Positions 38-240 of a stretch of 64,000 bases of DNA are shown here, one piece after another (within the stretch, counting starts at the first letter, position 1; each line of letters begins with the position of its first letter). The position numbers and the translations under genes were made by a program. The stretch is from positions 32,001-96,000 of the IMG/VR virus record IMGVR_UViG_3300050119_000104. One strand, 5' to 3'. Below the pieces are notes generated by a model. That model did no database searches. It saw only the letters and a list, made by a program, of their open reading frames with translations, and was not told the DNA's origin. Source of the stretch: a virus.

Positions 38-66
38 TTGACAGCCACCTGGAATTTTGCTTTTCT
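38..66 (+). promoter_or_regulatory. sigma70-like promoter inside the cassette
   Basis: TTGACA (38-43), 17-nt spacer, then TTTTCT preceded by GC. Same spacing as the other promoters in the window. Confidence 0.5.
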
Positions 67-72
67 CCGTTC

Positions 73-240
73 CGACAATCGCCTCCGATTGATTGGGGGT
101 ATCTAAAGACCATGTTTCCGTCGTCTGTTCGCGCCGAAAGGTAGAACGGCGATGAATAAGGTCCATTTCGGTGGATCGCGCAGAGTGCTCTGCGTCCTGT
201 AGAGGGAGAGCCGGGTTCGTGTCGTCCATTGGGCGTCAAC
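73..240 (+). ncRNA. stand-alone TnpB omega/reRNA-like RNA (boundaries approximate)
   Basis: GCCGAAAGGT (133-142), GAATAAGG (154-161) and hairpin GCGCAGAGTGCTCTGCGT (178-195) align with the 3' end of tnpB at 61298-61413 (-). GAAA and UUCG tetraloop hairpins present. Confidence 0.7.

Follow-up and report, generated by a model that had tools for sequence, protein, structure and literature searches.

A bacteriophage MITE of the IS1595 family with a predicted TnpB omega-RNA scaffold as its cargo

Protein-less derivatives of IS200/IS605 elements (PATE-like elements) have been documented to encode omega-RNAs for use in trans (Meers et al. 2023, PMC10055086). They are non-autonomous and gene-free, occur in many copies per genome, and their omega-RNA is used by a TnpB from another element; in these respects they resemble the cassette described here. 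PATEs are, however, bounded by the LE/RE hairpin ends of IS605, move as single strands via the Y1 TnpA and generate no target site duplication (TSD), whereas the cassette possesses terminal inverted repeats (TIRs), 8-bp TSDs and a DDE partner of the IS1595 family, and resides in a phage. An assignment to the PATEs was ruled out by the presence of TIRs and TSDs; the Y1 TnpA of the window belongs to another element, which lacks this TIR. In Fanzor elements with TIRs, the TIR and TSD are part of the scaffold, and the guide has been shown experimentally to lie beyond the transposon end (Yoon et al. 2023, PMC10711439). The likeness consists in an RNA-guided nuclease that is the cargo of a non-IS605 cut-and-paste transposon and in a TIR that is built into the scaffold. 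Fanzors are elements of eukaryotes or eukaryotic viruses, and the Fanzor1 reRNAs lack a pseudoknot; in contrast, the present element is found in a bacteriophage, has kept the predicted pseudoknot by using the TIR terminus, and exists in a nuclease-free MITE form. Finally, TnpB branches with DDE transposases and inverted terminal repeats are known, as are solo TnpBs that share these ends (Altae-Tran et al. 2023, PMC10691335): here, too, a prokaryotic TnpB is situated between symmetric ends and solo TnpBs are mobilised in trans, but the main text of that study names IS630 for one branch and contains neither IS1595 nor an RNA-only MITE derivative. A full-text literature search for IS1595 together with TnpB retrieved incidental co-mentions only. 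Published precedents thus exist for omega-RNA elements without a protein gene (PATEs), for TnpB within DDE transposons and for Fanzor scaffolds that include the TIR; what is new is that the element belongs to the IS1595 family, is a MITE, resides in a bacteriophage and uses its TIR terminus also as a pseudoknot strand.

The window, i.e. the whole stretch of 64,000 nucleotides that was analysed, corresponds to bases 32001-96000 of a 117,459-bp IMG/VR virus record that is rated complete, encodes a large terminase and a portal protein, and was found again in many peat metagenomes. An earlier note on this DNA had delimited a cassette at 38-240 and had overlooked its nature as a MITE associated with an IS1595-family DDE transposon; the real element extends beyond these bounds on both sides and is flanked by a TSD (Table 1), the inverted repeat being perfect over 23 nt and 81% identical when extended to 43 nt. 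Eight full copies (235-256 bp) and at least four partial copies are present in the genome (93-100% identical), and a perfect 8-bp TSD was found in 5/8 of the full copies. Because of its TIRs, 8-bp TSDs and multiple copies the cassette is classified as a MITE; an ORF check found no protein gene of note within it, as the note had claimed. BLAST of the cassette against its own genome retrieved MITE copies and TIRs only, with no tnpB 3' ends among the matches, and a search of GenBank phages gave no match.

Table 1. Coordinates of the MITE, its predicted RNA features and the TnpB-related genes within the window.
Feature	Position	Strand	Remarks
Left TSD copy, 8 bp	3..10	.	CAACAAAG; identical to 253-260
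MITE copy A, non-autonomous IS1595-family element, 242 bp	11..252	+	TIR pair, no ORF
Left TIR	11..33	+	outer end CATG; imperfect arm to 52; core shared with the termini of E1 and the autonomous IS1595 element
Promoter-like block	38..66	+	TTGACA, 17-nt spacer ending TGC, TTTTCT; conserved in all MITE lineages including the 72% old copy
ORF-less omega-RNA-like scaffold	124..252	+	R1 match 124-247, 46.8 bits, E 3e-11; tail to 252 in pseudoknot
UUCG-capped stem	160..177	+	MITE-specific; occupies the place of the tnpB zinc-finger-coding stems; compensatory changes between A group, L128 and old copy
Hairpin 1, 6-bp stem, loop AGUGCU	178..195	+	5/6 pairs covary in 22 tnpB-linked sequences, 100% paired
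Mini hairpin, 3 bp (CCU GUAG AGG)	196..205	+	2/3 pairs covary, 100% paired
Hairpin 2	211..243	+	outer stem CCGG 211-214 : TIR CCGG 240-243; 97.7% paired, one covarying pair
Right TIR	230..252	+	outer end CACG; perfect 23-nt inverted repeat of 11-33
Pseudoknot 3' strand AGCAC	247..251	+	pairs with loop 185-189; terminal bases of right TIR; 4/5 pairs covary, 99.1% paired
Right TSD copy	253..260	.	CAACAAAG; would form the first 8 nt of a flank-derived guide
Second TnpB, 367 aa, IS605 type	14184..15302	-	omega-RNA scaffold at 14184-14364, R1 102.8 bits
Y1 (IS200-like) TnpA	15305..15715	+	PF01797, E 5e-41; divergent partner of second TnpB
Fifth TnpB, 405 aa	52971-54188	-	HTH, OrfB_IS605 and TNB domains; more distant from the other TnpBs
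E1, tnpB-only element, 1136 bp	61227..62362	-	bounded by the TIRs of the cassette
tnpB-linked omega-RNA scaffold of E1	61227..61430	-	R1 172.8 bits; E1 in training alignment
TnpB of E1 (351 aa)	61268..62323	-	Pfam PF07282 and PF01385; RuvC D-E-D and zinc finger intact
MITE copy B	63814..64000	+	cut by window end; in genome 241 bp, TSD AAGAGACC

The cassette is a non-autonomous derivative of an IS1595-family (DDE) transposon that is resident in the same phage. The autonomous element (G000:8176-10421, equal to L031; outside the window) comprises 2.25 kb, shares the TIR core, displays an 8-bp TSD and encodes, besides two small passenger ORFs, a 347-aa IS1595 DDE transposase (PF12762, 1.3e-34; zinc ribbon PF12760, 1e-11) that would move the MITE in trans. 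The PF12762/PF12760 transposase, the 8-bp TSD and the passenger genes are shared with the ISSod11-like group of IS1595, and the ends fit the ISfinder consensus nnnGCnTATC. The 16-nt TIR core was present in more than 113 IMG/VR loci, dozens of them inverted pairs 200-2000 bp apart with 8-bp TSDs, and ~35 of the TIR-bearing viral loci encode IS1595 transposase homologs (56-95% identity); an 8-bp TSD was found in 62 related IMG/VR elements, in the metagenome contig L234 and in the autonomous element. Unlike the cassette, the usual elements and MITEs with this TIR terminate in CATG on either side and are devoid of an omega-RNA module. The 62 IS1595-type elements (loci L035-L147) prefer targets with A at -3 (41%) and T at -2 (54%) relative to the TSD, and their TSDs follow the palindrome G-W-W-N-N-W-W-C. 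A phage ORF of ~310 aa is interrupted by the autonomous element, in whose right TIR an ATG is in frame with the second half of that ORF; at the left end, TTGACA and TAGATT separated by 17 nt make up a plausible promoter directed inwards.

The 117 kb of the phage contain five intact-looking tnpB genes, one Y1 tnpA and one IS1595 transposase gene, and the catalytic columns of the TnpBs are invariant (RuvC D-E-D and zinc finger retained). Three of these tnpB genes reside in TIR-bounded tnpB-only elements: E1; E3 at the contig end, an identical twin of E1 with identical TnpB; and E2 (57% identity). The second TnpB element lacks the cassette TIR. In IMG/VR, relatives of this TnpB occur either with a divergent Y1 TnpA or between these TIRs without TnpA; a clean 8-bp TSD was found in one TIR-bounded relative (L155) and is missing from most tnpB-bearing TIR elements. 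The left flanks of E1 (62363-62375) and E2 (L031:15695-15707) are alike in ~10/13 bases (AGCTCA.TGA...); their right flanks are unrelated, and a TSD is present in neither. The right end of E1 (61227-61285, minus strand) contains GGAGG and an ATG that overlaps the tnpB stop codon (ATGA), from which an outward frame passes through the TIR into a 198-aa dATP/dGTP pyrophosphohydrolase-like gene (60675-61271, minus strand; family match beginning at residue 17): the E1 end appears to supply a new start codon to the gene it has entered. The nearest relative of the TnpB in a cellular genome (91%) is situated on a short contig of a Xanthobacteraceae MAG, which may give a weak hint of the host. In this contig (L235), the outer left TIR of the E1-type tnpB element is replaced, and the 8-mer GCGCATCC is found at the truncated left end and again just past the right end.

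For the comparison of the cassette with omega-RNAs, a covariance model (R1) was built from 22 aligned tnpB-linked 3' ends, with no MITE in the training set. The check by covariance that had been suggested for the cassette thus relied on tnpB-linked 3' ends only, and it retrieved the cassette (Table 1) as well as all other MITE copies (46-58 bits, top 57.7; E 1e-11 to 1e-14). Applied to ~100 loci with the same TIR, R1 matched tnpB 3' ends and L128, the sole MITE homolog, and nothing else; the TIR alone therefore does not explain the matches. Together with the TIRs and TSDs and the multiple copies, the covariance matches bear out the notion of a mobile, protein-less unit that keeps the TnpB omega-RNA scaffold. 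All strings quoted in the earlier note were recovered in place, and the described hairpin pair with an A-T/T-A swap is real; it lies inside a block that alone reached significance in a plain local alignment (24/28 identical; score 36 versus a shuffle mean of 18.7, sd 2.0, max 27; reached by 0/200 shuffles). The alignment of CCGAAAGGT...GAATAAGG is by itself too short for significance; its motifs do match the consensus of the 22 tnpB-linked 3' ends, to which they are closer than to E1. As to the tetraloops, said to have been gained by the cassette, the UUCG-capped stem is indeed MITE-specific, but GAAA is ancestral and present in the tnpB consensus.

The MITE interior gave no significant local alignment with E2 or with the IS605-type tnpB, no curated Rfam family matched the cassette at its gathering score (the sole Rfam matches in the window were three tRNAs), and the minimum free energy of the whole RNA is ordinary (z -1.45). 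Being without tnpB, the cassette does not show the overlap with a tnpB 3' end that is typical of omega-RNAs, nor do the omega-RNAs of PATEs. Conservation is poor in the 5' half of the MITE scaffold, which can be aligned to the 5' half of the tnpB scaffold in more than one way: R1 aligns the MITE colinearly, yet CCGAAAGGU...GAAUAAGG, a pair of motifs from the earlier note, can likewise be placed on the tnpB consensus with similar spacing, and the two alignments would imply different homologies. The only cargo of the MITE is a predicted ORF-less TnpB omega-RNA scaffold.

Hairpin 1, the mini hairpin and the outer stem of hairpin 2, in which the CCGG after AAAG pairs with the CCGG inside the TIR, were obtained with RNAalifold from the 22 tnpB-linked 3' ends. 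A closing helix, UGUU:AGCA, proposed by the same program was dropped; instead, the loop of hairpin 1 and the tail covary as a pseudoknot, GCGCU, GCGUU and GUGUC loops being accompanied by AGCGC, AACGC and GACAC tails, respectively. With the pseudoknot included, 99.2% of the cells in the 22 tnpB-linked sequences are paired and 12/18 pairs are changed on both sides; these values were reached by 0/500 shuffles, and sliding the partners by 1-3 columns reduced pairing to 31-40%. Every helix and the pseudoknot can be formed in the MITE, the covariation itself being documented for the tnpB-linked members. Because the final TIR bases are the pairing partner of the hairpin-1 loop, the scaffold reaches to within 1 nt of the element end. 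The role of the TIR terminus as a pseudoknot strand also explains that RNA-bearing ends read CACG in a family whose plain elements read CATG at both ends. In the IS605-type relatives, loop and tail correspond in the same manner although the tail is a different one, and divergence of the flanks sets in straight after the homologous tail. The arrangement shows a guide-RNA scaffold fitted to a different transposition mechanism, in which the last five TIR bases of a DDE transposon are a pseudoknot strand; it also represents a natural trimmed omega-RNA of ~130 nt, with a UUCG hairpin replacing the coding stems, that could guide omega-RNA minimisation.

MITEs usually arise by internal deletion of a larger element. 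The cassette could accordingly be an inert relic, i.e. an internally deleted tnpB-bearing TIR element whose last ~190 nt were kept by accident, which was recently spread by the IS1595 transposase, and whose RNA features are functionless leftovers; we judge this explanation unlikely, but to be taken seriously. It agrees with the common origin of MITEs, with the 93-100% identity of the copies, with the degenerate 5' half, and with the outcome of the expression and promoter surveys (no expression evidence from metatranscriptome contigs, no consensus promoter). Indeed, most copies are 93-100% alike, so that recent ancestry simply accounts for much of the sequence conservation seen in the A group. 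Besides this group, three further MITE lineages were compared: L128, the only other viral contig with the MITE family, which also carries an E1-type TnpB (96%); L234, whose copy has the 8-bp TSD mentioned above; and an old copy (G000:6528-6795) that has lost the left TIR. Exact-pattern scans for the MITE core retrieved only L128 from IMG/VR and only L234 from the metagenomes.

Against a mere relic stands that the core hairpins are unchanged in these three diverged lineages (old copy 72%; L128 and L234 83-86%): the 31 nt of hairpin 1 and the mini hairpin are 100% conserved in the old copy at 72% overall identity (0.72^31 = 4e-5), and this copy, even without a left TIR, still keeps the scaffold, the AUGAAUAAGG motif and a 50-nt 5' block. 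Compensatory changes in the diverged lineages concern two stems. The UUCG-capped stem, an RNA-type cap in place of coding stems, differs in all three with pairing maintained, and the inner stem of hairpin 2 changed among the MITE lineages from CGCCC:GGGCG to CACCC:GGGUG via a G-U intermediate. Other MITEs of the TIR family are devoid of the scaffold module, which is therefore dispensable for transposition. The kept core and the compensatory changes in the diverged lineages argue, if indirectly, for RNA-level selection on the MITE scaffold, which would then not be a purely inert relic.

The TTGACA that had been taken for a promoter is present at 38-43 and belongs to a block with TGC and TTTTCT that was found, genome-wide, in the MITE copies only. 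A sigma-70 consensus scan of the cassette detected no promoter, and sigma-54 and Bacteroidetes-type promoters were rejected by eye for wrong spacing; a promoter function of the conserved 5' block is put forward as a hypothesis, and the MITE would be transcribed either from this conserved -35/TGn block or by read-through. Metatranscriptome contigs cover one MITE left end and the left junction of E1; as such contigs can contain DNA and show neither strand nor ends, they cannot show transcription of the MITE. If the 5' block is a promoter, the element might also be conceived as a mobile cassette that serves expression or as a leader and has nothing to do with TnpB; its hairpins would form a stabilising leader, and its right end would provide a ribosome-binding site and start codon, thereby re-initiating interrupted or downstream genes. 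In-frame starts for downstream gene halves are indeed present at the right ends of both E1 and the IS1595 element, a partial MITE copy starts a 134-aa ORF, and the L234 copy lies directly 5' of a gene start. This explanation is nevertheless improbable: it leaves unexplained why precisely the helices of the TnpB scaffold and the pseudoknot have been kept, copy A is followed by ~250 nt without a gene, and no orientation of the copies relative to neighbouring genes could be derived from the gene map, which is crude and unreliable in the MITE-dense region.

The weakest explanation is that of a guide inside the element after AGCCGG, with cassettes that differ in their guides in the manner of a dispersed CRISPR array, and it is hardly credible: cassette and E1 do differ at this position, but the segment (GTTCGTGTCGTC...) varies among the MITE copies by no more than single bases, it represents the inner part of the extended TIR arm and forms hairpin 2, the pseudoknot puts the scaffold end at the TIR terminus, and in the IS605-type relatives the homologous hairpin 2 and tail belong to the scaffold, the flank beginning thereafter. 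Since the segment is invariant and part of the hairpin-2/TIR arm, it holds no set of differing guides. The divergence that the earlier note had described thus applies to the cassette versus E1 and not to the MITE copies among each other; copy B, for which a comparison of the segment beyond 64000 had been suggested, agrees with the cassette there, and the corresponding segment of E1 holds the tnpB stop codon and the outward start codon. The likeness to CRISPR arrays consists at most in many guides for one nuclease and is a loose one, valid only if guides were read from the flanks: the cassettes are dispersed single units without repeat-spacer units and acquisition machinery, and their guides, if any, are the flanks.

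A 35-nt sequence at 10875-10909 (plus strand), situated without TIR between the portal gene and the next gene, is a 94% copy of the E1 hairpin-2 interior including the tnpB stop and outward ATG; the 13 nt before it (10860-10872) are similar to an inverted inner left end of E1. The match was rejected as a guide target, as the segment is hairpin-2 interior with the tnpB stop codon; probably it has remained from a right end of the E1/E2 type.

Returning to the reading of the cassette as a MITE with an omega-RNA scaffold, a scaffold that ends 1 nt from the element end requires that any guide come from the flanking DNA. The right flanks are unique in the genome in 16/17 cases, and flank-derived guides had no second match in their own genome except for the copy inserted into the TIR of E2. 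This copy (L031:15472-15725) was found, with an 8-bp TSD, in the outermost bases of the left TIR of E2, so that its flank-derived "guide" would fit the TIR family, for which the genome contains 18 near-matches.

As the phage has five tnpB genes that look intact, an action in trans is the natural reading. Candidate partners are the catalytically intact TnpBs, and the only other viral contig with the MITE also possesses an E1-type TnpB. The best overall explanation, which we hold to be rather probable, is an IS1595 MITE with an omega-RNA scaffold that serves the TnpBs of the phage via guides from the flanks; taken separately, a function of the MITE RNA in trans appears plausible on the sequence evidence, with the chances about evenly divided. 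The RNA would load in trans onto the TIR-type TnpBs (E1/E3, E2), and the guide would be the 3' flank, i.e. the TSD followed by the adjacent DNA, as in the TIR-bearing Fanzor elements. Wherever the TSD is preceded by a TAM-like NATN, the complex would cleave those alleles of co-infecting relatives that are free of the MITE, and cleavage would favour retention or spread of the insertion by recombination. That the MITEs are RNA-guided homing elements in this sense, which use their own right flank as guide, let a TnpB cut in trans and are copied in by repair, is a tentative proposal and on balance rather doubtful. MITE-free alleles were not found among the contigs of four runs, which are broken at repeats, and a comparison of the flanks of 12 elements with all retrieved loci gave no empty-site match.

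A possible trace of a TAM was found beside the target site. The IS605-type relatives show a conserved TCATC just outside the left end. In the 62 plain IS1595 elements with TSD, AT occurs at -3/-2 before the TSD in 25% of the flank orientations, a background that is a mild target preference. In the 21 omega-bearing elements (tnpB-type and MITE), AT (NATN) was present at the left in 14/21 versus 2/21 at the right (binomial p 7e-5, Fisher p 3e-4), the motif having been defined post hoc after a partial view of the data; for the MITE subset, the values with the same post hoc motif were 6/9 and 1/9, which is only moderately significant (p 0.01 and 0.05). The asymmetry would fit selection for insertions whose empty allele has a TAM adjoining the flank-derived guide and is offered as a lead only. 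If the RNA works in trans, one phage would hold more than a dozen flank-derived guides for its TnpBs and would provide a tractable test system for RNA-guided homing between phage genomes. If homing holds true, bacteriophages would have their own counterpart of Fanzor: a DDE-transposon MITE that has become a gene drive and uses its TIR end as pseudoknot strand.

Further features were observed in the phage genome. The small genes at 338-366, 569-606, 2977-3014, 3598-3626 and 36478-36722 start with nearly the same codons (M-K-D-A-K/R-G-H-G-S) and form a paralog family. A dense short tandem repeat is present outside the window (L031:11346-11470 of G000), and the region 20329-23214 contains long collagen-like Gly-X-Y repeat arrays with periodicities of 93, 243 and 849 nt, which are probably tail-fibre genes.
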